From positions 1-31,584 of the IMG/VR virus record IMGVR_UViG_3300025392_000140: a stretch of DNA of 31,584 nucleotides; one strand, written 5' to 3'. The DNA is from a virus. Lineage: Duplodnaviria > Caudoviricetes. The notes below the pieces were generated by a model, which was given only the letters and a program-made list of their open reading frames with translations, had not been told where the DNA came from and did not search any database. The position numbers were made by a program, and so were the translations under genes. Of the stretch, positions 1 to 27,684 are shown piece after piece; within the stretch, counting starts at the first letter, position 1, and every line of letters starts with the position of its first letter.

Positions 1-235
1 ATACGCCACCACCGCCACCACCACCAACTTGCGCACCGTTAGTAGCTCCTGCTCCACCACCAGCTATAAGCAATGTTTGTGCAGGCACTCCCCCAGCACT
101 AGCATAACTTACTAGCAATGCTTGTGAAGCTATTGCTAATGGCAATGATTCTTTAATTATAGCCGAAGCAGTATCGGGTAATAATAAATAAAACGATACA
201 CAAACGGCTATTACAATGTCCGTGAACCTTTTCAT
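1..235 (-). CDS. Partial glycine-rich tail-fibre tip/receptor-binding-type protein with putative N-terminal signal peptide (runs off left edge; not in ORF track)
   Basis: Manual translation from ATG at 235 (TGATG overlap with the upstream stop): MKRFTDIVIAVCVSFYLLLPDTASA-IIKESLPLAIASQALLVSYASAGGVPAQTLLIAGGGAGATNGAQVGGGGGGGV... The LLIAGGG..GGGGGGG pattern is typical of Gly-rich phage tail proteins. Confidence 0.7.
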   Translation of the reverse strand, partial: MKRFTDIVIAVCVSFYLLLPDTASAIIKESLPLAIASQALLVSYASAGGVPAQTLLIAGGGAGATNGAQVGGGGGGGV

Positions 236-3200
236 CAATTTACGTTAATTAACCAGCGATTAGTTGTTACTTTTGCAGCACCAGCACTATGACCAGCAGA
301 AAGACTGACGTTTCCTGTAGCAGCACTTGAACCTGCCGTTACAAGAGTATCAGTATTTGTGGTAATAGTTACTGTACCTGCACCAATATCGTTAAAGAAA
401 TTGATAACTGTACCTAAAGCAAATCCATTCGGAATTGTAAAGGTTCTAGCATTAGTATCTGTAGCAGGGTGATAAATTAAACTATTTTGATCGTTAGGAG
501 TAATTAAAGTATAATTTCCTGTTGATTGAGAATTAACATTAATTGTCTGATAAAGAATAGCTGAAGTTACAAATTGGGTAGTAGCAATTTGACTATTATT
601 AGTTGAAGCAACTGCGGTTGGAGCAGTTGGAATACCTGCTAAAGCTGGCGATGTATTTAAAGTAACTGATCCAGTTCCAGTTGTTGTCACTACACTAATT
701 ACGCCAGATGTAGCCTGTAGTACACCTGTTAATCCAGTATTTAAAGTAGTAGTTCCTGTTGCCGTTAAAGCTCCAGTAGAAACGCTTGTAGGAGTAATTG
801 CTCCAAGATTAAGGCTGATTGATGGAGTGGTTGATGCATTAGTTATTGATGTACCAATGCCATTTGAGCCAGATACCGATACTAATGTTACAGTACCATT
901 ATAATTAGCCGATATGCTAATTGAACCTGTAGATGCGTTTAATGTAATGCCAGAACCTTGCACAAGGCTTATCACGCCGGCATTGGTTAATGTTGTTGAT
1001 CCACCTAAAGCAACTGTACCGCCACCAGATAAACCAGTACCAGCAGTTATTGTAATGCTATTATTAGTTAATTGGCTATTAGTGATACCACTTAATGTAC
1101 CACCAAGTGTAATTGTACCAGTTGATGTAATAGGCCCACCAGTTAAAGTAATACCATTTACTGAACCAGATGTACCAACGCTTGTTACTGTACCACCTGT
1201 ACCTGTGGCTGATAATGTACCACCAGAAAAACTAACACCTGTGCCAATAGTAACATTTGAAAAGCCACCTGCTCCGTTACCATACAGTAATGATGAACCA
1301 CTTGTAGCTGGTGCGTAATCTGTACCGCTAACCGCAGCAGTTAAACCGCCAGAACCATTAGCTTTTTGTATAGCACTACCAGTTGTGGCAGGAAGATAAT
1401 CTGTATTAGCCGTAGCGATAGCCAATGTATTAGCTGCGGTACGTTTTACTAAACCAGTTGTAGCTAATCCTGTGATTTGATCCTGCGTTACAGAACCACC
1501 TAATGATGTATTGTTACCAGCTATTGTAATTGAGCTATTAGCTAATTGAGCATTGCTAATTGTACCACTTAAAGCTGATGTAGGAATTGTTGTGCTAGCA
1601 GTCATTGCGCTAGTACCATTGCCATAAACATAACCAGTAAGACCAGTCGTTCCTGTACCACCATATAAAGCACCTATTGCGTTTCCATTCCATGTGCCAT
1701 TGGTATAACTACCAGCCCAATTTAATGTGTTTGTTGACCAGCTTGCGTTAGATGGAGCTACGTTGTGATAATCCCAAGTACCTGTTGATGTTGCATTTGA
1801 AAGAAGAACCACATCAATAAACGCACCAGATTGTAAGGTGGCTATGGTAGTACCAGAGTTATTCTGTACAGTAATTGTACCACTAGACTGATTGTTGTTA
1901 AACGTGAATATGTTTCCGTTAGGTAGTGTTGTAGCATCAGGTAGTTTAATTACCTGCCCACCAGAACCCGTAATCACCATATCAGGGCTTGATGAGGCTG
2001 TTAGAGTGATAGTTGTTCCACTAGCTGCTTGGCTAAGAAAGTTCTTAAAAAAGTTGTTACCAAATACATTACTATTACTATCACGAAGCACCACGCTATT
2101 AGCTCCAGATGAACTTGTTACTCCTGTACCTCCACTAGCTACATTTAATGTATTTGTAACCTGAGTTGATAAATTAATAGGTGATAAAGATCCACCTAAA
2201 GTTAATGATCCTGCTGAAGTAACTGTTCCAGATAAAGTAATTCCTTGTACAGTACCTGTGCCTGCAACTGATGTAACAGTACCACCTGTGCCTGTTGCAC
2301 TAATTTGTACTGAACCGCTAGATGCATTAAGTGTAACACCTGTGCCTGCGGTTAAATTAGTAACACCTGCATTGCTTAATGTTGTGCTACCGCCAAGTGC
2401 TACAGTTCCACCGCCAGACAATCCTGTTCCTGCCGTTACAGTAATTGAATTGTTTGCTAACGCAGTATTAGGAATGTTGGCTAATGAAATTGAAATATTA
2501 GGAGTAGTTGTTGGATTGCTTACGTTTGTTATTACGCCAACCCCATTGTTTGTGCTTATTGATGTTACAGTACCGCCAGAATTGCTTGCACTAATTTGCA
2601 CACTTCCCGTAGATGCATTAACAGTAACATTACTACCAGCTACGATATTGGTTACACCTGTGTTTGTGATAGTTTGATTAGGAAATGAACCGCTAACCGA
2701 TATACCATTACCAGCCACAGTTGCTGGCGTTGCAGTACCTGTACCACCATTGGCTACAGGAAGTATTCCCGTAACCCCAGAACTTAGGGGTAATCTAGTT
2801 GCGTTAGTTAGGTCAGCGTATGTTGGTTGTCCTAAATTCGGGGTTACAAGAACGGGGGAATTAGAAAGTACAACAGATCCACTACCTGTTGATGTTGTTA
2901 CGCCAGTACCACCATTTGCTATTGGTAATGTGCCAGATACTTGAGATGTTAAACTTACAGTACCAGATAAAGCTGATGTAGGTATAGTTGTAGAAGCAGT
3001 AATGCCATTAGCACCATTGCCTGATAAATAACCATTAAGCGTAGTTGAAAAAGTTAAAGTACCAGAACCAGTTACTGGTGATCCGCTAACTGTAAATCCA
3101 GATGGAGCAGCTAAACCTACGCTAGTTACAGAACCACCACCAGCAGTTGATGAAAGAGTTCCTCCGCTAAATGCTAATCCACTACCAACTGTTACATTGC

Positions 3201-4497
3201 TAAAACCACCAGCTCCATTGCCATAAAGAATAGACGATCCAGAAGTAGCAGGAGCATAATCAGTACCACTTACTGCGGTTGCCAATGTATTAGCAGCAGT
3301 ACGTTTAACAATACCAGTAGAACTTAAACCTGTAATAGTATCTTGGCTAATGCTTCCACCTAATGCGGTGCTTGTACCAGCAATAGTAATAGAATTGTTA
3401 GTCAACTGTGCATTAGTAATAGTACCAGATAATGATGTAGTTGGAATTGTGGTAGATGCCGTTACATTATTTGTGCTATTGCCATATAAATAACCAGTAA
3501 GTGCAGTAGTTTTTAAACTGTTAAATGCACCTGCATTTGCAGTTGTTTGACCTATAGATCCATTAAATACAGACGTTACGCTTGTAGGTGTAATATTGCC
3601 TAAAGAAATACTAATGTTTGGTGTTGTTGTAGGATTGCTAACAGACGTAACAACTCCAGATTGATTATTTGTAGATACAGATGTTACTGTACCGCCAGCA
3701 GCAGTTGAAGAAATTGTAACCGTACCACCTAATGCAACTGTACCACCACCGCTTAATCCAGAGCCAGCAGTAATTGTTATAGAATTGTTAGTAAGTTGGC
3801 TATTTGAAATGCCAGATAAAGTTCCGCCTAAAGTAAGATTACCTGATGTAGTAACATTACCTGTTAGTGTAATACCATTAACTGTACCTGTACCGCCTAC
3901 GTTAGTAACTGTACCAGCGTTAAGTGTTGGTCTATTAGTAAGGTCGTAATAGTTGCCCGTAGTTGCTACAGTTGCTAAACCAGTAATGGTTGATGCAGGT
4001 TGAGTACCTGTTTGGTTTGCACGTTGAATAGCATAAGCTTGTGCAGTAGCAGCAGCCCCAGCAGCATCATAAGCATTAGTAGATGTAAATGCTGCACTAC
4101 CTAAATTGCCAGTAAGACTAATATTAAGTACTGGAGTTGTAGTAGGATTTGTAACCGAAGCTACTACACCATTGTTAGTTGTAACGCTAAATGAAGTTAC
4201 GGTACCACCAGAAGTAGAACTTAATGTATTATTGGTGAAAGATAAACCTGACCCAATAGTAACATTTTGAAAACCACCATTGTTATTACCAGCAAGTACT
4301 TGGTTTCCAACTGTATTACCAGCCACATTGGTAGCAATAATCTGACCATTGCCTGTAGCAGTAATAGATACGCCACTAGGAACTACGATACTTCCATTAG
4401 TAAGAGCATTTGTGCCCTGTTGCTTTTGAACATTTACTTGAGCTATTGCAGCAACTGCACCCAAGCAAAATAAACTGATGGCTTTAATAAATTTCAT
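235..4497 (-). CDS. Long repetitive tail-fibre-like protein (1420 aa) with putative signal peptide
   Basis: Likely start is ATG 4497 (MKFIKAISLFCLGAVAAIA-QVNVQ), just after the upstream stop at 4502. The protein is T/S/G/N-rich with internal repeats, LPIANGGTG/LPVANGGTG motifs, the tail-fibre repeat SPALAGIPTAPTAVASTNNSQIATTQFV and a fibre-type C-terminal domain. Confidence 0.8.
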   Translation of the reverse strand: MKFIKAISLFCLGAVAAIAQVNVQKQQGTNALTNGSIVVPSGVSITATGNGQIIATNVAGNTVGNQVLAGNNNGGFQNVTIGSGLSFTNNTLSSTSGGTVTSFSVTTNNGVVASVTNPTTTPVLNISLTGNLGSAAFTSTNAYDAAGAAATAQAYAIQRANQTGTQPASTITGLATVATTGNYYDLTNRPTLNAGTVTNVGGTGTVNGITLTGNVTTSGNLTLGGTLSGISNSQLTNNSITITAGSGLSGGGTVALGGTVTISSTAAGGTVTSVSTNNQSGVVTSVSNPTTTPNISISLGNITPTSVTSVFNGSIGQTTANAGAFNSLKTTALTGYLYGNSTNNVTASTTIPTTSLSGTITNAQLTNNSITIAGTSTALGGSISQDTITGLSSTGIVKRTAANTLATAVSGTDYAPATSGSSILYGNGAGGFSNVTVGSGLAFSGGTLSSTAGGGSVTSVGLAAPSGFTVSGSPVTGSGTLTFSTTLNGYLSGNGANGITASTTIPTSALSGTVSLTSQVSGTLPIANGGTGVTTSTGSGSVVLSNSPVLVTPNLGQPTYADLTNATRLPLSSGVTGILPVANGGTGTATPATVAGNGISVSGSFPNQTITNTGVTNIVAGSNVTVNASTGSVQISASNSGGTVTSISTNNGVGVITNVSNPTTTPNISISLANIPNTALANNSITVTAGTGLSGGGTVALGGSTTLSNAGVTNLTAGTGVTLNASSGSVQISATGTGGTVTSVAGTGTVQGITLSGTVTSAGSLTLGGSLSPINLSTQVTNTLNVASGGTGVTSSSGANSVVLRDSNSNVFGNNFFKNFLSQAASGTTITLTASSSPDMVITGSGGQVIKLPDATTLPNGNIFTFNNNQSSGTITVQNNSGTTIATLQSGAFIDVVLLSNATSTGTWDYHNVAPSNASWSTNTLNWAGSYTNGTWNGNAIGALYGGTGTTGLTGYVYGNGTSAMTASTTIPTSALSGTISNAQLANSSITIAGNNTSLGGSVTQDQITGLATTGLVKRTAANTLAIATANTDYLPATTGSAIQKANGSGGLTAAVSGTDYAPATSGSSLLYGNGAGGFSNVTIGTGVSFSGGTLSATGTGGTVTSVGTSGSVNGITLTGGPITSTGTITLGGTLSGITNSQLTNNSITITAGTGLSGGGTVALGGSTTLTNAGVISLVQGSGITLNASTGSISISANYNGTVTLVSVSGSNGIGTSITNASTTPSISLNLGAITPTSVSTGALTATGTTTLNTGLTGVLQATSGVISVVTTTGTGSVTLNTSPALAGIPTAPTAVASTNNSQIATTQFVTSAILYQTINVNSQSTGNYTLITPNDQNSLIYHPATDTNARTFTIPNGFALGTVINFFNDIGAGTVTITTNTDTLVTAGSSAATGNVSLSAGHSAGAAKVTTNRWLINVN
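1000..4209 (-). repeat. Interspersed coding repeats within the long fibre gene
   Basis: LTGYxYGN...TASTTIPT...VKRTAANTLA...YGNGAGGFSNVT...GGTLS at ~3150-3501 and ~1205-1641. GTVT..NGITLTG..NSQLTNNSITITAG.GLSGGGTVALGG at ~3725-3915 and ~1000-1195. GGTVTS...NPTTTP..ISL at ~4113-4209, ~3600-3696 and ~2482-2577. Confidence 0.85.
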
Positions 4498-4501
4498 GGA
4501 A

Positions 4502-5326
4502 TTAAGATAAGGTTCCGGCAGCAGGTACAATCGTATCAAGGACTTGATAGTTTGTGCCATTCCAGACTAAGTGAAGTTCGCCAGCAGGAGTATACTGGTC
4601 ACTAGTGTATGTGCAAAGGATTGGATTGTTTATCGAGGTATCATAAACATTAATTGTGATACCATAAGCCGATGCAGTGCTAAATCTTAAGTATACATGA
4701 CCACCAGGTGACATAGCAGTAGCACTAACTACGCAACTTCTATTACCACCAGCACCAGCTAAAGTAATCCATTCAGTATGTAAGTTACTTGAAGGGCTTA
4801 CAGTAAATGTAGAGCTAGTTGCAGTAGTTTGAGCGTGATATGATACGTAAAATCCTGATGGAGCAGGAACATTATAACCAGGATTGTAAAAAGTAACATA
4901 GCCTGCACCATAGGTAATCATGTTACCAGAATTGGTGAGACCTTGAAAACTCATCCAGTATTGAGCAGAGTTTTCACCATATAGACTAATGTCTGTTTGA
5001 GCATTAGATAGGTCAAATTCTGCTTGGAATTGATTACCAGCAATCCATTCCTGATAGCTAATGTTGGATGTAATATACGGAGGGTAAACCGTAGATGTAA
5101 TTACAGGAGTAAGTGAGCTTGGATTAGATGATACTACAAGCTGAAGATACTGTAGATTGGAAAGATCTACTGGAGCATTGTATTGATTGAATAGAGCAAT
5201 TTGTACTGCTGCAGCACGTCGTACCCACAACTGTGGAGGAAGACCTGTCTTTATATCAATAGGTGTTACAGGTGGGTTAGAGACCAGCGTAAGCTGGACT
5301 TGAATTGGTAATTGCTCGTATCCCAT
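4502..5326 (-). CDS. Putative fibre adaptor / baseplate-upper (BppU-like) structural protein
   Basis: 274 aa, beta-rich. AAVQIALFNQYNAPVDLSNL resembles BppU-type N-terminal Ig-like domains. Lies between fibre genes. Confidence 0.45.
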   Translation of the reverse strand: MGYEQLPIQVQLTLVSNPPVTPIDIKTGLPPQLWVRRAAAVQIALFNQYNAPVDLSNLQYLQLVVSSNPSSLTPVITSTVYPPYITSNISYQEWIAGNQFQAEFDLSNAQTDISLYGENSAQYWMSFQGLTNSGNMITYGAGYVTFYNPGYNVPAPSGFYVSYHAQTTATSSTFTVSPSSNLHTEWITLAGAGGNRSCVVSATAMSPGGHVYLRFSTASAYGITINVYDTSINNPILCTYTSDQYTPAGELHLVWNGTNYQVLDTIVPAAGTLS

Positions 5327-5330
5327 AAAA

Positions 5331-6131
5331 TTAGTTTCCGAAAGCTATTACAGAAATACTGCTAGAGTTTTCTAATGATGGATGGCTACCACCATAAGAT
5401 TCCCAGCAGAATACTTGTAATGAAGTTGTTGTTTTAACACCCGTATAACCATTAGTTCCACCAGTAATAACATTGTTATCACCTAATGAATAACCTAATC
5501 CATTTTGTGAACCAGCACTACCAGACCAAGCATAATTGTTATTAAGAAATGTACCAGATACAAAGTTGATTTGATATACACCTTGAGCAATATATTGTAC
5601 GCTACTAATAGAAGATGAACTGCCTAAAATAGTACAATTACCACCGCTATTCGTAGTGCCATCAAAATTAACCCATGCTTTACATAAGTTAGGACCAGAT
5701 AAAGTTTGTACTAATGGTAACCAATAAGCGGTGTTAATACCTCCACCTGTAGCAACTAAAGGATAAATATTATTATCTACTTGGCTAACATAAATTCCAT
5801 AAGGAATTGATGTCGTTTGCATATTGTTAACCAAAGCATTTCTATAGTATGTTGTACCAGAATCATATTCAGGAACACCTACCTGCATGGTATAATTAAT
5901 GTAATATGATAGCCAATAAAATAGGCCATTCATATCTTCTAAAGCTGGTTGATTGGTACCAACTACTGCTGCAGGCCATCCACCAGACCAAGCTGGTAAA
6001 CTTTGAATTGTATTAGGATTAGTCGATGTTGCAGGAGCAGATGCAGCTAAACTACCAAATACACCAACAGACGCTGCTGCGGTTGAAGAATTAGAAAATA
6101 AAGCAGGAGAGTATCTTGTTAGTTGTGTCAT
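5331..6131 (-). CDS. Short tail fibre protein (baseplate-anchored)
   Basis: N-terminal FGSLAA...IQSL..WSGGW...PALEDMNGLFY...YTMQVGVPEYDSGTTYY resembles the baseplate-attachment domain of myovirus fibres. C-terminal KAWVNFDGT...GVYQINF fibre domain. Confidence 0.75.
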   Translation of the reverse strand: MTQLTRYSPALFSNSSTAAASVGVFGSLAASAPATSTNPNTIQSLPAWSGGWPAAVVGTNQPALEDMNGLFYWLSYYINYTMQVGVPEYDSGTTYYRNALVNNMQTTSIPYGIYVSQVDNNIYPLVATGGGINTAYWLPLVQTLSGPNLCKAWVNFDGTTNSGGNCTILGSSSSISSVQYIAQGVYQINFVSGTFLNNNYAWSGSAGSQNGLGYSLGDNNVITGGTNGYTGVKTTTSLQVFCWESYGGSHPSLENSSSISVIAFGN

Positions 6132-6140
6132 TGTAGTAAA

Positions 6141-8303
6141 TTATTCGAGAATCCAGTTGTAACCATCGCAAAATACTTTGCGTAAATAACCACCACCACC
6201 CACTACAGTTGTACCATAACCTGTGCCGTTAGGTGCGTTTGAGTCGCTAACAAAACATTCAGCAGCAGCGTTACCACTTGCTGATGGCAATGTAGATACT
6301 GTATATACTGATAGTTTAATTAAAGTTGTATTAGCAGGTACTGATAAAGCAGTACCGCCTACTCTGTTAAGCAATACTATATCACTTGTAGTTCCATTTC
6401 CTATAAGTTCTAATCCAAATGTAGGATATGCACCTAATTGACCTTGACCAGAGGTGCTTGGCGCACCTGTGGGTGATGTTAAATTAACATAACCGCCAGA
6501 TGCATTAATATTACCATTAGATGACAAACTACTAAATACACCAGTACTTGGAGTTGTTGCGCCAATAGGTGTACTATCAAGATGAGAATTAGCAATATAT
6601 GTAGTACCAATACTGGATTGAGAAATAGTTTTATTACTTAAATTTTCGGTACCAGTTGGTGATGTGTAATCAGTCCCAGCCGTTGCTGTAGTTAATCCAG
6701 AACCTGTACCTTTAATCATACCACTTAATGAAGTAGTAACAGTTAATGTACCAGAAGTTGTAACTGGACTATTGGTTACAGTAAAACCAGATGGCATTGA
6801 TAATCCAACTGAACTTACTCCTCCACCGCCACCACCAGAACCATTAGAAGCTGCGGTTATACGACCATAAGCATCAATTGTTATATTAGCATTAGTATAA
6901 GAGCCATAAACTCCAGATATTGGAGATAACGATAAAGTGGTTGTACCATTCCAAGTTAAGCCGGTTAATGTTACTGGAGATACTTTTCCGGTTGCTCCAT
7001 TTACTCCTAAAATACCACCGCTTGTTGATGTAAACAAACTTGGATTATAATATTGATTATTATTAAAATAAGTAGATCCAGAAAAATTTGCTACATATCC
7101 AGAACTAGCATTAAATTGTGCTATTTTATTAAAAGTAAATCCTGAACTTGTTAATGTGGAAGTATCCGCAAAAGTAATAGCAGGACTTGAGCCAGAACCA
7201 ACAAAGGTAGCTAAAGGCAAATAAGATGTGCCATTTAAATATGTAGTGCTATTAAACACAGCTACACTACTACTAAAATAAGAAGTATCTGGCATTGTAA
7301 CTGTACCAGTAAATGTAGGATTATTTACTGGAGCACCAGTAGATCCATTAGATGCAGAAGTAACTCTTCCATAAGAATCAACTGTTACTGTAGAATTAGT
7401 ATAAGTGCCTGAACTTACTCCTGTAGTAGCTAGTGAAACAGTAGCTTGATTAGAAGTGGTAACTGCATTGATTTGTCCACTAGTTCCAAAAACTGCTGTT
7501 ATACCGCCACCGCCTCCACCACCACCGCCAGCAGTAGTTTGAATAGTACCATCTGCAAAAGTTATACCTCCACCACCACCTGGTGTTAATTTTAAATTAT
7601 TAAGCACGTTCGTATCTGTACCAGATTGATATATGCCATAATGATTTGTGGCAGTAGGTGCCGAACCAATGTAAAGTTGATAAGCATTAGTAATATTACT
7701 AGATCCACCAGAAACAGTACCCAAATCTAATCCGTAATAGGTTAAACCTGTGTAACTGCCGATACTTAGATTAGGCTGAATAAATACACCAGTCATTACT
7801 TCGCTATTAGCGTTCATAACTAATGTTGGTTGATCATATATACCAACCGCAGGATTTGAAAATAAACCTGTGCTTGCAGCATAAGTACCAGTAACTGATG
7901 CACCTGATCCCAAAACTGTAGCACCACCAATACCAATTTGATTAAATTGTACAGTATTACCTGTACCTATGGGTTGAGGTAATGTTAAAATTACATTACC
8001 AGTTATATAAGTACCTGTAGTTCCATTTACATAAATTTCGTTTGGAAACCCTTGTACACCTGTTGATGTAACACCACTATTACTAGTATTTACAGTTAAA
8101 GTACCACCACTTAATGCTAAATTTGTACCTAATGCTAATGGTTGTAAACGATTAGATGAATCTACATAAGTTATGCAACCTGTTACTGCTGGTGAAGAAT
8201 TAATAGTTACAATACCAGATAATGTAGGATTATTTATTGGAGTAGTTTGTGCTAAAACAAAACTTACCACCAATGGTAAAAATAATAATTTTAAGTATTT
8301 CAT
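6141..8303 (-). CDS. Tail-fibre-like protein (720 aa) with putative signal peptide
   Basis: Likely start is ATG 8303 (MKYLKLLFLPLVVSFVLA-QTTP), immediately after the upstream TAA. Two G(T/S)YTN..(V/I)T(V/I)D.YGR(V/I)T.ASNG fibre repeats (~7343-7410, ~6840-6905), poly-Gly linkers and a C-terminal YTVSTLPSA...FVSD...GGG...VFCDGYNW domain. Confidence 0.78.
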   Translation of the reverse strand: MKYLKLLFLPLVVSFVLAQTTPINNPTLSGIVTINSSPAVTGCITYVDSSNRLQPLALGTNLALSGGTLTVNTSNSGVTSTGVQGFPNEIYVNGTTGTYITGNVILTLPQPIGTGNTVQFNQIGIGGATVLGSGASVTGTYAASTGLFSNPAVGIYDQPTLVMNANSEVMTGVFIQPNLSIGSYTGLTYYGLDLGTVSGGSSNITNAYQLYIGSAPTATNHYGIYQSGTDTNVLNNLKLTPGGGGGITFADGTIQTTAGGGGGGGGGITAVFGTSGQINAVTTSNQATVSLATTGVSSGTYTNSTVTVDSYGRVTSASNGSTGAPVNNPTFTGTVTMPDTSYFSSSVAVFNSTTYLNGTSYLPLATFVGSGSSPAITFADTSTLTSSGFTFNKIAQFNASSGYVANFSGSTYFNNNQYYNPSLFTSTSGGILGVNGATGKVSPVTLTGLTWNGTTTLSLSPISGVYGSYTNANITIDAYGRITAASNGSGGGGGGVSSVGLSMPSGFTVTNSPVTTSGTLTVTTSLSGMIKGTGSGLTTATAGTDYTSPTGTENLSNKTISQSSIGTTYIANSHLDSTPIGATTPSTGVFSSLSSNGNINASGGYVNLTSPTGAPSTSGQGQLGAYPTFGLELIGNGTTSDIVLLNRVGGTALSVPANTTLIKLSVYTVSTLPSASGNAAAECFVSDSNAPNGTGYGTTVVGGGGYLRKVFCDGYNWILE

Positions 8304-8304
8304 A

Positions 8305-8730
8305 TTATACGTATGCTCTCCAAGTAATTTTGTGGGTTCCGTCTGGTACTGGTGCTGAAAGGGCAACATAAAAATATTGAGTATCAGTTAAATTATAAAC
8401 AATATTACCAAAGATTGTAGTCAAATTAGATAAAACTAAAGAATTACACATTAAAGTAATATCTATTTTTGTAGGTGCAGTAGCTAAAGTTGAATTGAAT
8501 GGTATTTTATAAACGCTTGCAAAACCACTAGCTAACATTGCAGTAGTAATAGTAACTGGACTAGATGAATAATCCATAAGTACACCACCAGTAATATTGG
8601 ATACTGAAATTTGTGCAGATGCCGTAGAATTAGGAAGACCAGAATTGTCTAATTCCATTACATCATTTGTATTACGCAAACGTAGTATTGGCGTAGAACT
8701 GTTGATTTCTATAATTCTTTCGTTTGACAT
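8305..8730 (-). CDS. Small tail-fibre adaptor/structural protein
   Basis: 141 aa. N-terminus SNERIIEI...NDVMELD...AQISVSNI resembles the KISEL...D...TxKITxxNL fibre-docking motif. Follows the baseplate wedge gene. Confidence 0.45.
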   Translation of the reverse strand: MSNERIIEINSSTPILRLRNTNDVMELDNSGLPNSTASAQISVSNITGGVLMDYSSSPVTITTAMLASGFASVYKIPFNSTLATAPTKIDITLMCNSLVLSNLTTIFGNIVYNLTDTQYFYVALSAPVPDGTHKITWRAYV

Positions 8731-8734
8731 GATA

Positions 8735-9553
8735 TTAAGTTCCTAATGAGGTGTATCGTGTATTTGATAAACTTGTAGTTCTTGTGTTTCCGTCACTTAA
8801 TACACGTTTGCTACCATAAGATAAAATGGTTACATTAATACCAACTCCCATTGGTTTAGGTAAAAATTCTTTTAATAAATCTATACTTAAAGAAGTATAT
8901 AGATTAGAAACTGCATACGTAAGCGTCATGTCTTGATTGTCCGTAAGGACAACAAAACTAGGAAGCAATAAATTTAGTAAGTCTTGTATTGAAGCCAATG
9001 TTCCATTGTTGGAGTTCAATATGATCTGTAATTGTATTACTAATCTATATTGGTCATCATTTAATGCACTATTTGGCAATCCAGCACTATGATACGTTTC
9101 CCATACACCTGTAGTATTACTATTTTGTGCGTAATTGCGTAAACCTATTGTATTGCCTGAATTGCTATAGTTTTCAAATCCCCAATATGGTGGATTACCA
9201 TTTGGATTAATATTTCTATTAACTCCAACATATTGACCAATTACGTCTAATTGTACACCTACCGCCGTATCTACGTTAAAAGCATATAGGATTTGAGTTA
9301 AAATATCATCACCTAATGCCTGTTTAGACATTAATGCTATTAGACGCTGGGCATTTGGACCCTGTGAATATTGCGATATAATTCTAGCTACATAGTAATT
9401 AACTAATGCTATAAGATGCTTTGTAGGTATTTGTCCTGTAGTTGGGGCACCTGCTGTAGGCCAGCTAGGAGTGACACTAGAATAAGCATCATATACCCCA
9501 TTGGCAAAAATGGGAAATATGTTATTCTTTGGTCTTACAGGAAATATAGGCAT
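8735..9553 (-). CDS. Baseplate wedge protein (DUF2612 / gpI-like)
   Basis: IISQY...AFNVDTAVGVQLDVIGQYVGVNR, LNDDQYRLVIQLQI..N..NGT, DNQDMT and LPKPMGV motifs. Directly downstream of baseplate J. Confidence 0.85.
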   Translation of the reverse strand: MPIFPVRPKNNIFPIFANGVYDAYSSVTPSWPTAGAPTTGQIPTKHLIALVNYYVARIISQYSQGPNAQRLIALMSKQALGDDILTQILYAFNVDTAVGVQLDVIGQYVGVNRNINPNGNPPYWGFENYSNSGNTIGLRNYAQNSNTTGVWETYHSAGLPNSALNDDQYRLVIQLQIILNSNNGTLASIQDLLNLLLPSFVVLTDNQDMTLTYAVSNLYTSLSIDLLKEFLPKPMGVGINVTILSYGSKRVLSDGNTRTTSLSNTRYTSLGT

Positions 9554-11010
9554 TACGGAGCGCCAGTTAACGTAATGTTAGCAGCAGGTATATTAAATAA
9601 ATAGTTAACACCAGTTGGTGATACTATATCTAGCCATGTACTGCCATCGATTGATACCTTTGCATTATAAATATAACAATTTGGTGCATAGGTATTGAGT
9701 ATCGCAATTATCTGACTTGCATCTGCTGGTTGTCCAATAGCGTAAGTCAAATTGGTTATAATATCATTTTTTAATGCTGATGCATTAGGAACGATACCAC
9801 CAGTAACTGTAGGAGCTATATTACATTTAAAATAGAAAGCTTCTGGTACAGCCACATCAAAATAAATAGGAAAATAAGTATTATCTACTTGTTTAACATT
9901 AACTGTTATAGTGTTAGGATTAACATTAACAGTTGGAACTGAGGTATAACCAGTTCCTGGCGTATCAACTACAAATGAAGTAATAGAACCTCCACTAACA
10001 ACTGCATGAGCAGTAGCTCCTGCACCACCACCGCCAGTAATTGTGACAGTAGGGGGATATATATAACCAGTACCCCCAGATCCTAAAGTAATAGATCCTA
10101 CTGTTGTACCAGAAAGATTTGCCGTACCTGTACCACCTGTACCTGAATTTGTCTGACCACAACCAGCGTTACGTTTAACGTAAATAATTTGAGCTATTTG
10201 TTGCTTTAAACTGTCAGTTAAAGTCGTATTCGTATCTATAATAACCCAAATGCTATGTGGAGGTATACCATTTGTGGTTACATTAGAATCGTTTTCGTAT
10301 ACAACAGCATAGGCAACACCAGGTACTGTTAATAAACCAGCATACAAACCTTGCAAATAGCCTTTACTAGGCAACGAAACTGAAGATGCACGACGTATTC
10401 TAAGTGCTGAATCTGATTCTTCAAGTTGTCCTAAAGAAGTATAAATACTAGGATTATTTACAGAACCTACACTGGTAGATACGGATACTATTGTAGTAAT
10501 AGTATTTATAGCCGATTGTACTGGTCCTTGATTAGCAGCTTGAAACAATAAAGATTGAGGCGTGGAACTAGTAAAAGTATAAGTTCCTGCTAATTGATAT
10601 ATGTTACCAGCACCATCTGATACCGAAAAAGGTGTTAAAGGTTGCTGATCTATTCCATAAATAGTAAAAGGAAACGTAGCCGTACTTGAAGGCGTAACAG
10701 TTATTGGTTGTTGAGTATAAGTACCACCTTGTCTTACCACACCATTAATAGCACATCTAGCATCTAAAACTGTACCTACTGCTAAATCAGGATTAAACGA
10801 ATTATAAATTTGCTGGGCATATTGAAGTACATCTTCTTTAGCCTGTGCAAAAATATTGATTAAATTACTATCTGGGGAATTAGCATTAAGATTGGCACCA
10901 GGAAATATGGTAGCGTATCCTGGGAAACTAATAGTTCCACCCACGATTTCGTTCTGGATTTCAGAAATCGACTGTATTGTTAGGCCGTTGGAATCTAAAG
11001 TATTAGGAAT
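9553..11010 (-). CDS. Baseplate J-like wedge protein (probable ATT start at 11010; 485 aa)
   Basis: DSNLINIFAQ, YNSFNPDLAVGTVLD, GQLEESDSALRIRR, VYENDS...GIPPHSIW motifs. The frame stays open upstream of the GTG at 10944 through (M)PNTLDSNGLTIQSISEIQNEI, which resembles the usual J N-terminus. Confidence 0.88.
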   Translation of the reverse strand: MPNTLDSNGLTIQSISEIQNEIVGGTISFPGYATIFPGANLNANSPDSNLINIFAQAKEDVLQYAQQIYNSFNPDLAVGTVLDARCAINGVVRQGGTYTQQPITVTPSSTATFPFTIYGIDQQPLTPFSVSDGAGNIYQLAGTYTFTSSTPQSLLFQAANQGPVQSAINTITTIVSVSTSVGSVNNPSIYTSLGQLEESDSALRIRRASSVSLPSKGYLQGLYAGLLTVPGVAYAVVYENDSNVTTNGIPPHSIWVIIDTNTTLTDSLKQQIAQIIYVKRNAGCGQTNSGTGGTGTANLSGTTVGSITLGSGGTGYIYPPTVTITGGGGAGATAHAVVSGGSITSFVVDTPGTGYTSVPTVNVNPNTITVNVKQVDNTYFPIYFDVAVPEAFYFKCNIAPTVTGGIVPNASALKNDIITNLTYAIGQPADASQIIAILNTYAPNCYIYNAKVSIDGSTWLDIVSPTGVNYLFNIPAANITLTGAP

Positions 11011-11037
11011 AGTAATCTAAGAGTAGGAACAACGTCG

Positions 11038-14593: not shown

Positions 14594-15949
14594 TTAATAT
14601 TGTGATGAAGCTAAACTAGATTGTGCAGCTAAACCAGCTAACTCTGTATTCCAGAATGTTTTTACTACATCAATAAACTTTTCACCAGCAACCTTACCAT
14701 CGCCACCATGATTTGTTTGATTTACAGTTAAATTAATTAGCTGTTGTTGTGCTTGTGCTAATTTAGGATAGCTATCAGGTATAGTAAATAAAGTATCTGG
14801 ATTTTGTAATTTATTTAATTCAGAAAAATCTAGTCCCATGCCAATTTTAAAAGACGATTTAAATATAGGATATAATTCGTTTATACCTTTTAATATTTTA
14901 TCTACAACATTTGCGAAGTTAGTAAGTGGCACTACCAAATCTTTTCCAATAGTTGTGCTTAATAATTTTGCTTGTAAATTAATATCACCCCAAATGGTAT
15001 TTATTTCTTTTAATTTGTTTATTTCTTCGTCTGTATAACGAGCAGCACTTTCTTGTTCTGAAGGATCAAATTTGCCTGCTCGTATCGCAGCATAAAGATT
15101 TGGATCTTGAATACCTAAACCTTGTGCTGCTTGAAATGCTATTGGTGCATTTATACCAGAAGATTCTTTAAGTGCTTTGTTTATTTTGCTAAATGCAGTA
15201 TAAACATCTTGTGTGGGGTCTATACCTAATTGAGAAATCCAAGGATTAGTACTACGTTTTAAAGCTACATCAGTCATTATCTGTTGTAACCTCATTATCG
15301 TAGAAGTCATTTCATCTGCACTACTACCAACTTTAATTGCTTCTAATTGCCAGTTTTGTAATACATTTGTAGATAGACCTGTGCTTAAACTAAAATTCTT
15401 GAGATTGTTTCCAGTACTAATTGTGGAACTTGAAATCTTATCTAATGCTATAACTGCACCTGCTATTACTGCTCCAGCAGTTAAAGCTTCAATTCCTAAT
15501 TCACTAAATGCTATAGCTAAATCATTAACATCAGCTTTACCCTGATTTATCTTATTAAATGATTTTACATTTTGTTCGTAAGCTTTTTTCTTAGCAGCCT
15601 CTTCTTTATCGTATGCTTTTTGCATACGTTTACGAAAATCTTCTTCTGCTTTAGCTTGCTTTTCTTTTTCTCTAAAATCTTTATCTCTTAATTCTTTTTC
15701 GTACTTATATCTTTGTACGTGACTATCTTTTTGCTTACCAGCTTCTACTTCTTTATTTTCTAATACTTCTGGTTTCTTTATCTCAATATTAGCTAATGAG
15801 GTAAGTTTCTTTTGTACATCACCTAAAGATGAACCTAAATCTTTAGCTGCTTTTGCAGCCTCTTGTAATTGCTTAGTTACAGCATTAAGCGCTTCAGGAT
15901 TATCTACTTTGAATCCTAATTTTACAAAGAAGTCTGCAATCTGGCTCAT
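14594..15949 (-). CDS. Tape measure protein (short, 451 aa)
   Basis: N-terminal IADFFVKLGFKVD, helical/coiled-coil composition, position after the tail chaperones. Confidence 0.8.
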   Translation of the reverse strand: MSQIADFFVKLGFKVDNPEALNAVTKQLQEAAKAAKDLGSSLGDVQKKLTSLANIEIKKPEVLENKEVEAGKQKDSHVQRYKYEKELRDKDFREKEKQAKAEEDFRKRMQKAYDKEEAAKKKAYEQNVKSFNKINQGKADVNDLAIAFSELGIEALTAGAVIAGAVIALDKISSSTISTGNNLKNFSLSTGLSTNVLQNWQLEAIKVGSSADEMTSTIMRLQQIMTDVALKRSTNPWISQLGIDPTQDVYTAFSKINKALKESSGINAPIAFQAAQGLGIQDPNLYAAIRAGKFDPSEQESAARYTDEEINKLKEINTIWGDINLQAKLLSTTIGKDLVVPLTNFANVVDKILKGINELYPIFKSSFKIGMGLDFSELNKLQNPDTLFTIPDSYPKLAQAQQQLINLTVNQTNHGGDGKVAGEKFIDVVKTFWNTELAGLAAQSSLASSQY

Positions 15950-16190
15950 TTCTTATTTTCCTTATTAAGTTCGTATTCGGTTTCAGTGCTTTCGGCCTGA
16001 CAGATATGAAAGTACCATGCGTCTAAGACCAAATCAGTAGGCATCTGCAAGATTTCTTGCAAAGTACCTACTCCCTTTAAGTTTAACTGTAAAGCTATCC
16101 GAACCTCTGGACTTAGCTCATCTCGGACTTTTGCCCGTTGCCACTTGGAATCCCTTTTTGGATTGATGACAGCGATGCGAGGTTTTTGAA
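15946..16190 (-). CDS. -1 frameshift extension of tail assembly chaperone (gpGT-like)
   Basis: Open -1 frame (QKPRIAV...GTLQEILQMPTDLVLDAW...KK) with no convincing start of its own. It ends in an ATGA overlap with the TMP start and is entered from the slippery run CCCCTTTTTTC. Confidence 0.7.
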
Positions 16191-16562
16191 AAAAGGGGCT
16201 AAGTTCAATGTAGCCACCTCCCAAGCTACGAGAAGGAAATCTGGACGATTGTCTTCAGAATCAAAGGTATTTGCTGCTATTCTTGTAGCAGTAAAATCTT
16301 TAATTCCTTTGAAAGTGCATGACATCATACACTTCCATATAGCTTCTTGTACGTGTTCGGATGTCCCAACTTTAATTACTATATCTTTAAGCTGGGATGC
16401 TTCTAGTTGAAACAGTGTGCTTAAATCAAAAGCAGAACCAGGTTGGCCTATAGGAACTCCAACGAGTTCTTTAAAGACTGCATTAAACAATTTCATACTG
16501 TCGGAGAATCCAGCTAACTGGAATCCTAGAACAGCACCGCTAGATAGGGGAATATCTTTCAT
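16113..16562 (-). CDS. Tail assembly chaperone (gpG-like)
   Basis: 149 aa between tube and TMP, with NLAPFF near its C-terminus. Confidence 0.75.
   Translation of the reverse strand: MKDIPLSSGAVLGFQLAGFSDSMKLFNAVFKELVGVPIGQPGSAFDLSTLFQLEASQLKDIVIKVGTSEHVQEAIWKCMMSCTFKGIKDFTATRIAANTFDSEDNRPDFLLVAWEVATLNLAPFFKNLASLSSIQKGIPSGNGQKSEMS
16188..16197 (-). promoter_or_regulatory. Programmed -1 ribosomal frameshift site
   Basis: Minus strand GCC CCT TTT TTC AAA contains overlapping X XXY YYZ heptamers C CCT TTT and T TTT TTC in the correct phase. Confidence 0.7.
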
Positions 16563-17041: not shown

Positions 17042-18478
17042 TTAAGGGTTGATAAAGATGATTCCGTTAACGCTCTGAATAGCTCCAGCAAACTTAACAC
17101 CAATTTGAACTAATGGAGCGACTCGGTTTTGACGTTGTGCTTGTAATTGTTGAGATACAGGTTGCGAATAGATGTAATAACCGAAATCAGCAATATTGCG
17201 GATTAAATCCACAGGATTACCAAAGGTTGTTGCAGTCCATTGACCAGGAGCAAGGAATCCATTAGCTACTGCCTGATTAAGAACATTTGTCATAGCTCCT
17301 TTTAATGCAGTCATACCAGATTCTGTTTGTGGAATTTTAGTAGGTGTTTGAGCTAAGAAGTTAAATGTAGTTGTTTGTAATGTATTGAGCAACCAAGTCA
17401 TGTTGAATACATTATCAGCATAACCATTTGCACCAGTTGAAATAGTTTCTGGAATACCTTGAATTGAGGTATAGAAATCAGTTCCAACCACTTGGCATTG
17501 TGCATAAGTTGTAGAATCAATACCGCTATCAGCTACTAAGCTACTACCAGGTTGAATACCTGTTAATTGCTTAAAGTTCATTGTAATTGTCGTGTTACTT
17601 CCATTGAAGTTTGTGGACAATAAACGTGAAGCATAAGCAGCAGCAAATAAACGAGCAGCTTGGGCACTTACTGTATAAAGAAGTGTACGTGTTTGCTGAT
17701 TGCCTGCAGCAAATACTTGATAGCACATACCCTGTGGTGAACCACTAGAATAAAGATCTGATTTATTATTTGTTGGAGCAAATAATAGTGTCTTTGGCGT
17801 TAATGCTTGTACTTCATTAGAAGCAGCTACGATTTCAGAAACGTTAGGATTATATGCACACCAGCAAATACCACCTGTGTAAATTAATTGAGTGATTGCA
17901 AAGATAGCTGTTGAAAGCGTATCAGCACTTGTCATTGGATAAATTACCAACTGACCACCACCAGAAAGAATGTTTGGTGATTGGCTAAATACTTCTTGAG
18001 CCATTGCATAAGTTTCTGAACCTGTACCGAAATCAAGACCTACTTGAATTGGATCAGTATAAACTCTGTAGGTACTACCAATAATAATTGTTGGAACAGT
18101 AGCATAATTAGCACCACCATTAATAACATTAATTCCAGTTACTACACCACTAGAATTTACAACTGCTGTACCAGATGCAGGAGTGATTGTATTTCCTGTG
18201 GTTGGTGTACCACCTACGAAAAATACTGTTGGTATATTTGTATAACCAGAACCACCACTGCTTATTGTAATTGCACTTAATCCTAATGGAATAGCACCAC
18301 CAGAAAGTGAACCAGTTACCGATGCTACTGCACCATGACCAAAACTTGAATATGAAGGACCGGAAGAAGATGGTGATTCTGCCGTAATAATAGCCAACGA
18401 ATTTACGTTGTACGCTGGAACACCTGAGCCAGGTTGTTCAACGGTGAAGTTAACGAAGTTATTAATTGATAGTGACAT
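17042..18478 (-). CDS. Contractile tail sheath protein (DUF3383-like) with inserted domain
   Basis: LSINNFVN start, VGLDFGTGSETY.MA..FSQSP, TITMNFKQLTGI, KIPQTESGM, AVANGFLAPG.W, GYYIYS, RQNRVAP, AGAIQSV. Confidence 0.92.
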   Translation of the reverse strand: MSLSINNFVNFTVEQPGSGVPAYNVNSLAIITAESPSSSGPSYSSFGHGAVASVTGSLSGGAIPLGLSAITISSGGSGYTNIPTVFFVGGTPTTGNTITPASGTAVVNSSGVVTGINVINGGANYATVPTIIIGSTYRVYTDPIQVGLDFGTGSETYAMAQEVFSQSPNILSGGGQLVIYPMTSADTLSTAIFAITQLIYTGGICWCAYNPNVSEIVAASNEVQALTPKTLLFAPTNNKSDLYSSGSPQGMCYQVFAAGNQQTRTLLYTVSAQAARLFAAAYASRLLSTNFNGSNTTITMNFKQLTGIQPGSSLVADSGIDSTTYAQCQVVGTDFYTSIQGIPETISTGANGYADNVFNMTWLLNTLQTTTFNFLAQTPTKIPQTESGMTALKGAMTNVLNQAVANGFLAPGQWTATTFGNPVDLIRNIADFGYYIYSQPVSQQLQAQRQNRVAPLVQIGVKFAGAIQSVNGIIFINP

Positions 18479-19943: not shown

Positions 19944-20636
19944 CTACGGTAGCGTTTCTCTAAAAGCTACAAATACGTTGGCAATTAATTGAGGACTGAT
20001 TATCTGTAGATACATTGCACCATATCTAGTTTTACTAAAATGTGAGAGCATTGGGTCCTGAGCTATCCGTTCTGGGATTTGAAATCCTTCAGTTACGGAG
20101 TCGATGCTTTTGGATACAGTCAGCCAACTATATTGACTGCCCATGCCCTCCTGAGCAGCCAAGAGCTTTTCCACTAGCTGGTGCGCTGCTAGATATAGGA
20201 AAGCCCGACTAAAGAACTGCTGTGTCGGAAATAGAGCTTGGTTAATATTAAACTGAGCATCAAAAATTGCTCCGCTAATATCATTGTCTGTTACTTTGCT
20301 TAAATCAGATGGATCTCCAGCACCACCAGTAATAGTGATAATTGGAGGTTGTCCATAATTAGATCCACCATTTGTAACGGTAAATCCAGTTACCTGACCG
20401 CCTGCAATACTTGCAGTAGCAGTTGCGCCTGTGCCAAGATCTCCTGGAGCAGCTCCCACAATGACTGTAGGTACGGTGGCGTAACCGAACCCACCTGCTC
20501 CAAGAGAAATTGACGTTACGACTCCAGAGATGTTAATTGAAGCAATGCCAGAAGCTCCATACGCAGGAACTGCATAAGGAAAGTCGCGGGAGAATTGCGA
20601 TTTAAAATCACTAACAGTTGGAATCGTGAATGGCAC
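19944..20636 (-). CDS. Head-tail adaptor (DUF4054-like) with inserted domain
   Basis: TVSDFKSQFSRDFP start, AFLYLAAHQL, SKSIDSVT and KTRYGAMYL motifs. GTG start. Confidence 0.8.
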   Translation of the reverse strand: MPFTIPTVSDFKSQFSRDFPYAVPAYGASGIASINISGVVTSISLGAGGFGYATVPTVIVGAAPGDLGTGATATASIAGGQVTGFTVTNGGSNYGQPPIITITGGAGDPSDLSKVTDNDISGAIFDAQFNINQALFPTQQFFSRAFLYLAAHQLVEKLLAAQEGMGSQYSWLTVSKSIDSVTEGFQIPERIAQDPMLSHFSKTRYGAMYLQIISPQLIANVFVAFRETLP

Positions 20637-24177: not shown

Positions 24178-25178
24178 GCTGCGTTTAGCGTCTTATTTAG
24201 AGCGACAAGTATCCTAGCAGCACATCTGCAATTATAGTCTTCACCTGGGTGTCCACGTCTGCCTGTTTCTCTATCAACTATGGGTGGATTATCCCAAGAA
24301 AATTGACGTTTTTCTAATAATCTATGGTCGTGACGTACCCTATTATCTAAAACGGTATGCCAAATATAGCCTGGGGAACCTAAAGCATCTGCTTGTTCCT
24401 GTACGTAATTAGCAATTAGTAGATTTGTTTCCTGTATAGCCATAGTGTTAGCCATACGATTAGCCTTACCATTATGGGCTTTAATTATACCCTCTAGCTT
24501 GTCCAGCCTGCCTTCATTCATGTTATTTTCTACTGCTTTATGTAGGCTTTCAACATGGTCTAAGGTGTAGTTTTTAAGTTTATCTTCTAAATTTTGATGA
24601 AGCTTATCTGTTACTTTAATACGTATATCTTGTCGTACGTGTTCGCTAAATTCAGTCTCTTCAGTTATTTCTAAATTTTTTAAATCTTTAACAATAGCTT
24701 GGTGTGTAATACCAACTATACTTTCAACTGGTTTATCAAACAAAAGTCCTAGTTCTTTGACTTCTTTGAGGTTGGTGAAGATAAACCCAAGTAACGCAAG
24801 AAGCTTTTTATGCGTTTCTTTACTTTTTTGTTTTGATTCAGATATTTTACCACGAAGTTCATATGGTATATCTCCTTGTTTGATAGCATATCCATTTAGA
24901 ACTTTATTATATTTAGCTCCAATGGATTGCATCTCTTTGCTTATCTTGGAATTAAATTTTCCGTAGAAAACTGTTCCATTGTAATGTATTACACCAGACT
25001 CTAAAGCTTCAGTAATAGCTGAATACGAAATACCAATATAATTTTGTCTAGAAACTTCTGATTCTAGCAAATCGTAAATAGGCTGATATACCACATCAAT
25101 GAACCAATGACGTAGTTCTCTTTCTATTGGAATAGCATCGCTATCCCGTGGTATTATCGGTTGTAGGGCTATCTGCAT
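24174..25178 (-). CDS. Minor head / head morphogenesis protein (Mu gpF / SPP1 gp7 family)
   Basis: YIWHTVLDNRVRHDHRLLE..QFSWDNPP...HPGEDYNCRC motif. ATG at 25178 overlaps the portal TGA. Confidence 0.92.
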   Translation of the reverse strand: MQIALQPIIPRDSDAIPIERELRHWFIDVVYQPIYDLLESEVSRQNYIGISYSAITEALESGVIHYNGTVFYGKFNSKISKEMQSIGAKYNKVLNGYAIKQGDIPYELRGKISESKQKSKETHKKLLALLGFIFTNLKEVKELGLLFDKPVESIVGITHQAIVKDLKNLEITEETEFSEHVRQDIRIKVTDKLHQNLEDKLKNYTLDHVESLHKAVENNMNEGRLDKLEGIIKAHNGKANRMANTMAIQETNLLIANYVQEQADALGSPGYIWHTVLDNRVRHDHRLLEKRQFSWDNPPIVDRETGRRGHPGEDYNCRCAARILVALNKTLNAA

Positions 25179-26827: not shown

Positions 26828-26884
26828 AAAGAGATCACGTTAATCTGTGATTGACCTTTGGTTAATTTGAAGCAAGAAAAAGAT

Positions 26885-27670
26885 ATGACTATCCCACATG
26901 ATAAAATACTAGGTAAACATACACCAGAAGCTGAAAGAGACCCAAAACTCGTATTTATAGGGGTTCCTATGAGTGGAGAATTAAGATGGGAAACTGCCCA
27001 GATTCTTTCATATCTCAGTCAAAATGAGGTAGCTGGATACAAGTTTGTGGTACGTAAATTAGGCGGTTTTGGCGTGGCTAAAGCTAGAAATGTACTCCTA
27101 TGGTTAGCTAGACAGACTAAGGCTAGTAAAGTTCTATGGATTGACTCCGATATTAACTGTGGACCAGCCCAAATTGAACGTATTTTATCACATGACGTAG
27201 ATTTAGTAGGCGGTGCATATCCTAAAAAACAAATACCACTAACTTGGGTGGGAGAGCAAATACCTGGTGATTATATGGGCGATTTAGCCCCTATGTTGCA
27301 TTTAGGTACTGGATTCTTGCTACATACTATGAAAATGATTGATGAAATCATTATCAACAATCCATCCATTTCCTACCATTCAGACGAAGATTATGGAGAC
27401 TTTGTCAAAAACGATATATTCCATGATGTATTCTCAATGGGTGTTGTAGATGACAAATGGTGGAATACGACCTACCCACGTTATATCACTGAAGACTATT
27501 ACTTGTCCTATCGCTGGAGAAAACTAGGTGGACAAGCATGGTTAGACACAAAGTGCCAATGCGGTCATATTGGATATGCCGATTACTTAAAGCTTAATGG
27601 TCAGTTAATGGATTTAACTGAACGATTAAACGATGCCAATTTAAAGCTCCAAATGGCCCTCCATAAGTAG
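26885..27670 (+). CDS. GT-A fold (GT2-like) glycosyltransferase
   Basis: VFIGVP, VAKARN, LWIDSDI (DxD), LVGGAYPKK, GTGFLL, TEDYY, GHIG. Likely start ATG 26885. Confidence 0.85.
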   Translation: MTIPHDKILGKHTPEAERDPKLVFIGVPMSGELRWETAQILSYLSQNEVAGYKFVVRKLGGFGVAKARNVLLWLARQTKASKVLWIDSDINCGPAQIERILSHDVDLVGGAYPKKQIPLTWVGEQIPGDYMGDLAPMLHLGTGFLLHTMKMIDEIIINNPSISYHSDEDYGDFVKNDIFHDVFSMGVVDDKWWNTTYPRYITEDYYLSYRWRKLGGQAWLDTKCQCGHIGYADYLKLNGQLMDLTERLNDANLKLQMALHK

Positions 27671-27684
27671 CGTATTGGCGATAA

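Follow-up and report, generated by a model that had tools for sequence, protein, structure and literature searches.

Three genes in the fibre slot of an uncultured contractile-tailed phage encode proteins with conserved Sec-type leaders, and we consider it fairly likely, judging from the sequences, that these outer fibre parts are exported by the host Sec pathway and docked late onto cytoplasmic adaptors. The genes are located in the IMG/VR record IMGVR_UViG_3300025392_000140 (Duplodnaviria; Caudoviricetes), a 31.6-kb virus record that was analysed over its whole 31,584 nt (hereafter the window). They encode a 720-aa fibre that is rich in Gly, Ser, Thr and Asn and whose body is mosaic among relatives (F1, 6141..8303), a repetitive 1420-aa fibre without cysteine past its leader (F2, 235..4497), and the 5' part of a glycine-rich protein cut by the window edge (1..235). 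All three are on the minus strand, behind the baseplate wedge genes, and tightly packed in the late tail module. Three leaderless genes, encoding 141-, 266- and 274-aa proteins, are interleaved with them.

A preliminary description of this DNA had placed leaders with n-, h- and c-regions at the starts of the three genes, and these are present with the sequences described: 18 aa in F1 (8250..8303, minus strand, predicted cut V-L-A/Q), 19 aa in F2 (4441..4497, minus strand, A-I-A/Q) and 25 aa in the glycine-rich protein (161..235, minus strand, A-S-A/I), where the n-region contains Lys, Arg and Asp for a net charge of +1. The ATGs adjoin the upstream stops, as had been claimed, at distances of 1 nt, 4 nt and -1 nt, and the fibre-type motifs quoted from the bodies of the three proteins were found in the sequences. 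Leaders were called with a simple n/h/c heuristic of our own, not with SignalP. Applied to control phages, the heuristic was positive for an i-spanin signal anchor and for an o-spanin, whereas a signal-anchor-release (SAR) endolysin and an esterase escaped it. Among the 32 minus-strand genes of the window, it is positive for exactly these three, and its background is 0/667 for internal 45-mers of fibres. One leader called elsewhere, in P0053, was rejected as a false positive of the heuristic arising from a truncated start.

The leaders are conserved among relatives. Queries with DUF2612, F1, the adaptor and a holin-like gene retrieved the related loci, whose called genes were classed by BLAST against the window proteins. 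The leader counts refer to distinct N-termini; they exclude five loci, each a re-fetch or phi1422, as well as any gene whose start lies within 60 nt of the beginning of its locus. Leaders are found at 15/15 F1 and 13/14 F2 N-termini versus 1/406 N-termini across 22 other gene classes, which agrees with the earlier statement that the interleaved and core genes lack them (0/13, 0/49 and 0/9 for the 141-, 266- and 274-aa genes). The 29 F1 and F2 leaders were listed by hand, with the cut set at the first Gln after residue 13. They are 16-21 residues long, with an n-region net charge of +1 or +2 in 29/29, an uncharged hydrophobic run of 13-16 residues, and no charge in the last 12 positions (0/192 in F1 and 0/156 in F2, or 0/348 together). 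Position -1 is Ala, Gly or Ser in 29/29, and position -3, counted from the Gln, is Ala, Val or Gly in F1 and mostly Leu in F2. Pairwise identity between the leaders is only 0.48 (F1) and 0.44 (F2). Since the form is kept while the sequence varies, selection seems to act on the form of the leader, as expected of signal peptides. The export proposed earlier is backed by this conserved form, and the Sec route itself is predicted.

We consider it highly improbable that the hydrophobic N-termini are due to chance or to the choice of start codons. The starts were picked by position and longer open reading frames (ORFs) exist, but the first-ATG alternatives, at 8369 and 4560, would run 65 and 59 nt into the upstream genes and mask the leaders of F1 and F2. 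These extensions are not conserved, because the in-frame upstream stop in relatives is only 1-28 codons away. Chance is also at odds with the 24 distinct leaders of one form, the contrast between F1 or F2 and the other N-termini, the lack of charged positions, the uniform position -1 and a background of 8/1668 for internal 45-mers of window proteins. Furthermore, an independent contig (L049) agrees letter for letter with the window over the last 9553 nt, and the third gene, followed into that contig, encodes at least 499 aa. The leaders in the window are real and conserved.

The predicted mature N-terminus of F2 forms a module, 'VNVQK' (4312..4440, minus strand; hereafter the N-module), that also occurs without a leader. 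A profile of the first 45 mature residues of F2 identified 37 N-module proteins among 8000 candidates scored, of which 35 are leadered (34 by the heuristic, 1 by eye) and 2 leaderless. Of the 35 leadered proteins, 34 have Gln directly after the predicted cut, with Ala, Gly or Ser before it, and these 34 contain the 24 distinct leaders; the module starts at residues 17-24 in leadered proteins and 5-7 in the two leaderless ones. In L076, where the gene order is DUF2612, base fibre, adaptor and fibre, the fibre begins directly with the N-module, an in-frame stop is located 30 nt upstream and no leader is present. In the leaderless P0190, the N-module is joined to a pectate-lyase beta-helix, as in tailspikes. 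The predicted mature N-terminus of exported F2 thus corresponds to the natural N-terminus of ordinary cytoplasmic fibres, on the basis of L076 and P0190. The module is shared with leaderless fibres (L076, P0190, P0193) by F2 only.

These observations also bear on two explanations in which the leader is not simply removed from an exported fibre. The leader could be an uncleaved tether to the inner membrane, where particles would collect the fibres in the manner of filamentous phage coat proteins. The heuristic flags a signal anchor too, and the Leu that is most common at position -3 of F2-type leaders is less typical than Ala. However, the uncharged stretch, which includes the c-region, is too short for a stable anchor, position -1 is small throughout, and the N-module starts exactly where its leaderless version starts; we regard a tether as rather improbable. 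Alternatively, each gene could yield two products, with the virion supplied by a leaderless form that begins at an internal start, or by molecules that escape export, and the exported form in a side role. TTG, GTG or ATG codons are present near the leader end in 22/29 leaders, and the clade appears to use unusual starts elsewhere, in the baseplate-J gene. On the other hand, the codons are at varied positions (11-25), are missing in 7/29 leaders and are absent from the mature start in the window, so that two products seem quite improbable.

The gene immediately upstream of F2 encodes the leaderless 274-aa adaptor (4502..5326, minus strand), for which an AlphaFold2 model shows two beta-sandwich domains (pLDDT 90, pTM 0.58). 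The fold of residues 1-150, a BppU-N/neck-collar-like domain, matches the Sf14 neck (Z 11.0) and TP901-1 BppU (Z 10.2), and the adaptor may therefore sit on the neck or the baseplate. A BppU_N cluster in the ESM Atlas (0.82, 42% of members) serves as a lead only. For residues 160-268 (hereafter X), the best fold match is residues 78-180 of CBA120 TSP4, with Z 8.9 against a tool background of 7-8, a root-mean-square deviation of 2.9 and 94 aligned residues. From the linker position given in passages of PMC8825819, the matched region corresponds to XD1, whose nearest structure is T4 gp9 according to the same passages. The adaptor is thereby predicted to combine a virion-anchoring beta-sandwich with an XD1/gp9-like domain. 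In T4, gp9 receives the long tail fibre. No meaningful match to the adaptor was found by PDB sequence search, and none in cultured phages by tblastn.

X and the N-module track each other along the genomes. Among 3152 called genes, the N-module genes with an upstream neighbour come after an X-ending gene in 16/16 distinct pairs, and the complete X-ending genes are followed by an N-module gene in 16/16 cases. Fourteen of these pairs are adaptor-to-fibre, one is fibre-to-fibre (L052), and one links a collagen-like leaderless fibre to a fibre in an unrelated phage (L134), the last two being independent contexts. The L074 adaptor has another C-terminus without the terminal X, and the next fibre there has no N-module. 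The N-module of F2 is hence a candidate plug for an X-domain socket, as this adjacency suggests. X also ends other leaderless virion-type proteins, occurs alone and in tandem, and is located at the ends of leadered fibres; P0108 consists of a leader, the N-module and X, and nothing more. In P0085, P0100, P0128, P0014, P0017, P0019 and P0161, X stands alone, is in tandem or triple, or ends a connector-like protein, suggesting that several virion sites may carry fibre sockets. P0086 gave 11 weak matches to X, and was set aside as spurious since it appears by eye to be a cadherin-like repeat protein.

From this docking logic, F1 and F2 are probably virion fibres that are exported and joined late. 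In the route that we propose, the outer pieces of a branched multi-part fibre system would be exported by the host Sec pathway, and signal peptidase I would trim the leaders, exposing the N-module, usually at Gln. The fibres would form trimers in the periplasm, together with glycine-rich tip proteins and with small partners that have leaders of their own, while the adaptors would be made leaderless in the cytoplasm and reside on finished particles. A breach of the inner membrane would then let the N-module bind X on the finished particles, so that joining would occur at lysis. The preliminary description had suggested that the exported proteins may join through leaderless adaptors, with all three interleaved genes (141, 266 and 274 aa) in view. 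For the 274-aa protein and F2 this is supported by the adjacency, the leaderless counterpart and the predicted XD1/gp9-like fold; an adaptor role for all three finds no support, as the 266-aa protein is a normal fibre.

The exported proteins may, on the other hand, never join the virion and act as receptor masks, decoys or adhesins on the cell or in the medium, with the 266-aa fibre adsorbing alone. A role on the infected cell had been offered earlier as an alternative. Such a role would be compatible with the leaderless canonical fibre, and phages do encode leadered periplasmic exclusion proteins, such as T4 Spackle and T5 Llp. It accords poorly with genes packed inside the late tail module and with an N-module that also starts leaderless fibres of the same slot; an adaptor and a fibre that never meet are hard to explain when the X of the cytoplasmic adaptor tracks the N-module in every pair. 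No C-terminal membrane or lipid anchor was seen by eye in the three sequences, of which the third is incomplete. We consider this alternative unlikely, and less probable than the late joining of exported fibres.

The 266-aa protein (5331..6131, minus strand) has PHROG tail fibre matches, and its residues 2-140 are 37% identical to phi1422 gp73. It is therefore a canonical baseplate-anchored short tail fibre, and its proposed role as an adaptor was not borne out. A PDB sequence search with this base fibre gave no meaningful match. The third leadered gene encodes a Gly_rich_2 protein (PF21722, E 7.8e-25). The glycine-rich protein gave no meaningful match in a PDB sequence search (L060 relative), with none to gp38, and none in cultured phages by tblastn. 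In L052, L055 and L131, both the glycine-rich gene and its small partner gene have leaders of their own. L052 moreover shows a fusion of a fibre-tip domain with the glycine-rich domain, which suggests that the glycine-rich protein is a candidate tip adhesin. The partner family, phrog_7759, occurs with and without a leader.

A different leader was observed at L060:9508-10987, where the glycine-rich gene has a twin-arginine-like leader, as judged by eye, but the partner gene behind it has none, unlike the partners of the Sec-type versions, which are leadered. This single pair would fit co-export of a hitch-hiking partner by the twin-arginine translocation (Tat) pathway, which is possible. No further Tat-like leader was found among the 8000 candidates scored, a set that recovered not even close relatives.

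The leader trait is confined to certain lineages, as indicated by other loci of the DUF2612 type. Five other records with this baseplate type, four from cultured proteobacterial phages and one uncultured, have leaders at 0/13 genes of the fibre slot. Of 49 distant DUF2612 loci, 42 have a downstream gene of at least 200 aa, and a leadered one is present in 3/42 (5/101 genes). L131, podovirus-like by gene content, encodes a leadered fibre, glycine-rich protein and partner (L131:5046-11241), so that the trait seems tied to the group of hosts and not to the type of tail; L131 also has holin-like and lipoprotein (lysis-type) genes, as in the myophage relatives. In L059, the leadered F2 orthologue of the same slot has a C-terminal Peptidase_S74 (chaperone) domain, and L134 encodes a leadered fibre with PHROG tail fibre matches.

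The arrangement resembles known branched fibre systems in its parts. As in the T4 gp9/gp10-like XD systems of CBA120 TSP1-4 and G7C gp66 described in passages of PMC8825819, a protein that is predicted here to be virion-anchored and XD-like precedes receptor-binding proteins with N-terminal docking modules, and the chains can branch or extend (L052, P0108). Unlike in those systems, the outer pieces here have Sec-type leaders, no known TSP head domain corresponds to the N-module, and the domain matched is XD1, whose binding role in TSP4 those passages leave unsettled. The long tail fibre of T4 (gp34-37) is a separate branch that is attached to gp9 late, and the T-even gp38 is a polyglycine adhesin. 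As in T4, the fibres here would be added to finished particles, and a glycine-rich protein is encoded after the fibre; the T4 parts, however, are cytoplasmic and leaderless. The pIII and pVIII proteins of filamentous phages use the host Sec pathway and signal peptidase, and are membrane-anchored and assembled by extrusion. The use of the same export machinery would be shared, unlike the product, which here is predicted to be a soluble appendage of a lytic tailed particle. Phage-encoded periplasmic proteins that are released at lysis depend on this machinery as well, but are not virion parts.

Two cultured phages have leadered genes in the fibre slot. Phi1422, a dwarf myovirus of the phiPLPE group according to passages of PMC3391216 that infects Bdellovibrio bacteriovorus, resembles the window in its gene order and its head, sheath and baseplate families, and has a leadered gp68 after a leaderless fibre, gp67, together with a leadered gp75 (2/34 genes checked). 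The two leadered proteins, gp68 (614 aa, L135:20430-22274) and gp75 (24299-24811), are unannotated. Phi1422 differs in that no match to the 274-aa adaptor was found and the kinship of gp68 and gp75 to F1 and F2 is not established; their fibre role is inferred from position, since they have no PHROG match. In Tunturi 1, whose host is Tunturiibacter psychrotolerans, gp12, 13, 14, 16 and 17 are leadered (5/21 genes checked), including the annotated tail spike; gp12, 13, 14 and 17 contain 10-32 cysteines, unlike the window fibres. The main text of the Tunturi 1 paper has no mention of 'signal peptide'. A full-text literature search, in which subscription papers were thinly covered and supplements excluded, gave no report of leadered tailed-phage fibres. 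The parts are thus of a known kind, and a Sec-export route was not found described for tailed phages.

The Gln after the cut resembles the Bacteroidetes Q-rule for signal peptidase I substrates, in which, according to passages of PMC5837995, some other groups also have high Q-values. The Gln at +1 does not fix the host here; gp68 of phi1422, which has a Bdellovibrio host, also has it. A host search with the adaptor and the holin-like gene against genome contigs gave no matches.

Several points weigh against export followed by late docking. The heuristic is blind to the difference between a cleaved leader and a signal anchor, export is unnecessary for the function of the module because leaderless versions exist, and the leaderless short fibre could serve alone. 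None of F1, F2 and phi1422 gp68 has a match of its own to a recognised Pfam or PHROG fibre family. For F1, no N-terminal virion-anchoring module in common with leaderless fibres and no docking partner was found, the 141-aa gene being a positional candidate. The Z score of X with TSP4 barely exceeds the tool background, the function of XD1 is described as not fully understood in part of PMC8825819, and 14 of the 16 pairs are orthologous and hence not independent. Phi1422 gp68 matches only itself in the cultured-phage search. Modification, which had been put forward as a reason for export, finds no support either. N-x-S/T sequons number 21 in F1 against 15.6 expected (p 0.07) and 45 in F2 against 43 expected; D-S/T-(A,I,L,V,M,T) motifs number 1 (1.7 expected) in F1, 2 (2.7) in F2 and 1 (0.4) in the third gene, showing no excess, and there are 3, 0 and 2 cysteines past the leaders of F1, F2 and the glycine-rich protein. 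The second motif is that of O-glycosylation in Bacteroidota. Neither glycosylation sequons nor disulfides thus account for the benefit of export here. The window fibres are almost without charge, and we can only guess that export gives very long uncharged chains a chaperone-assisted folding space outside the cytoplasm, or separates the fibres from the particles until release.

The surrounding genes place the window in a known group. The minus strand holds the genes for particle morphogenesis of a small phage with a contractile tail, with terminase, portal, major capsid, neck, DUF3383 sheath, tape measure, wedge and DUF2612 families, an E217-gp41-like hub gene and a spike gene. The sole cultured match of the capsid protein is Bdellovibrio phage phi1422 (39% identity), and the tail module is of the phiPLPE/phi1422 myophage type. 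The DUF2612 baseplate wedge protein (8735..9553, minus strand), assigned by family search, marks the start of the fibre slot and is followed by six genes, in the order 141 aa, F1, 266 aa, 274 aa, F2 and the edge-cut gene. The leaderless 141-aa gene (8305..8730, minus strand) always immediately precedes F1 in the close clade and, by its position, encodes a candidate proximal partner of F1. A second docking-type N-terminus, similar by eye to the start of the 141-aa protein, is present in leaderless (L074:4971-6041) and leadered (L072:3464-3961, L125:7444-9225) proteins. ESM Atlas look-alikes of F1 are all viral, with scores <0.9 (a lead only), and a PDB sequence search with the F1 C-terminus gave no meaningful match.

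Further observations concern the rest of the window. The baseplate-J-like gene (9553-11016, minus strand) has no ATG, GTG or TTG at its likely start, and the first GTG comes 24 codons into the open frame; such start codons are also missing in the relatives L007-L009, and L126 has ATG. The gene likely uses a non-canonical start codon. A glycine-rich module of ~75 residues is inserted in the neck protein (19944-20636), the sheath (17042-18478) and the baseplate-J protein (9553-10944, all minus strand), as seen from PHROG 460/701/708 matches common to the three. At 15946-16562 (minus strand), a tail assembly chaperone gene and an overlapping downstream ORF precede the tape measure gene, like frameshifted G/GT pairs. 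The gap between the terminase and portal genes (26858-28464) holds a 259-aa minus-strand gene without a family match and a 270-aa plus-strand ORF, and L128 and L129 have a related insert at the same place.

To our knowledge, textbook tailed-phage morphogenesis is entirely cytoplasmic. We lean, at slightly better than even confidence, towards a two-compartment particle in a widespread group of tailed phages, in which the core and adaptors would be made in the cytoplasm and the adsorption apparatus in the periplasm, with plug-and-socket joining at lysis; the leader would be a switch that one and the same plug can acquire or lose, and in one relative Tat may serve for export, with a partner hitch-hiking. 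It would also mean that leadered 'hypothetical' tail-module genes are missed or mis-started in annotation, as in the window, where first-ATG calls hide two of the three leaders. The window adds a named candidate plug-and-socket pair and a leaderless natural control, L076. With leadered genes in their fibre slots and with laboratory hosts, the cultured phages phi1422 and Tunturi 1 allow a direct test of the idea. If it is true, particles in intact cells would be without part of their adsorption apparatus and lysis would be an assembly step, and burst experiments, premature-lysis assays and host defences against such phages would be read differently.

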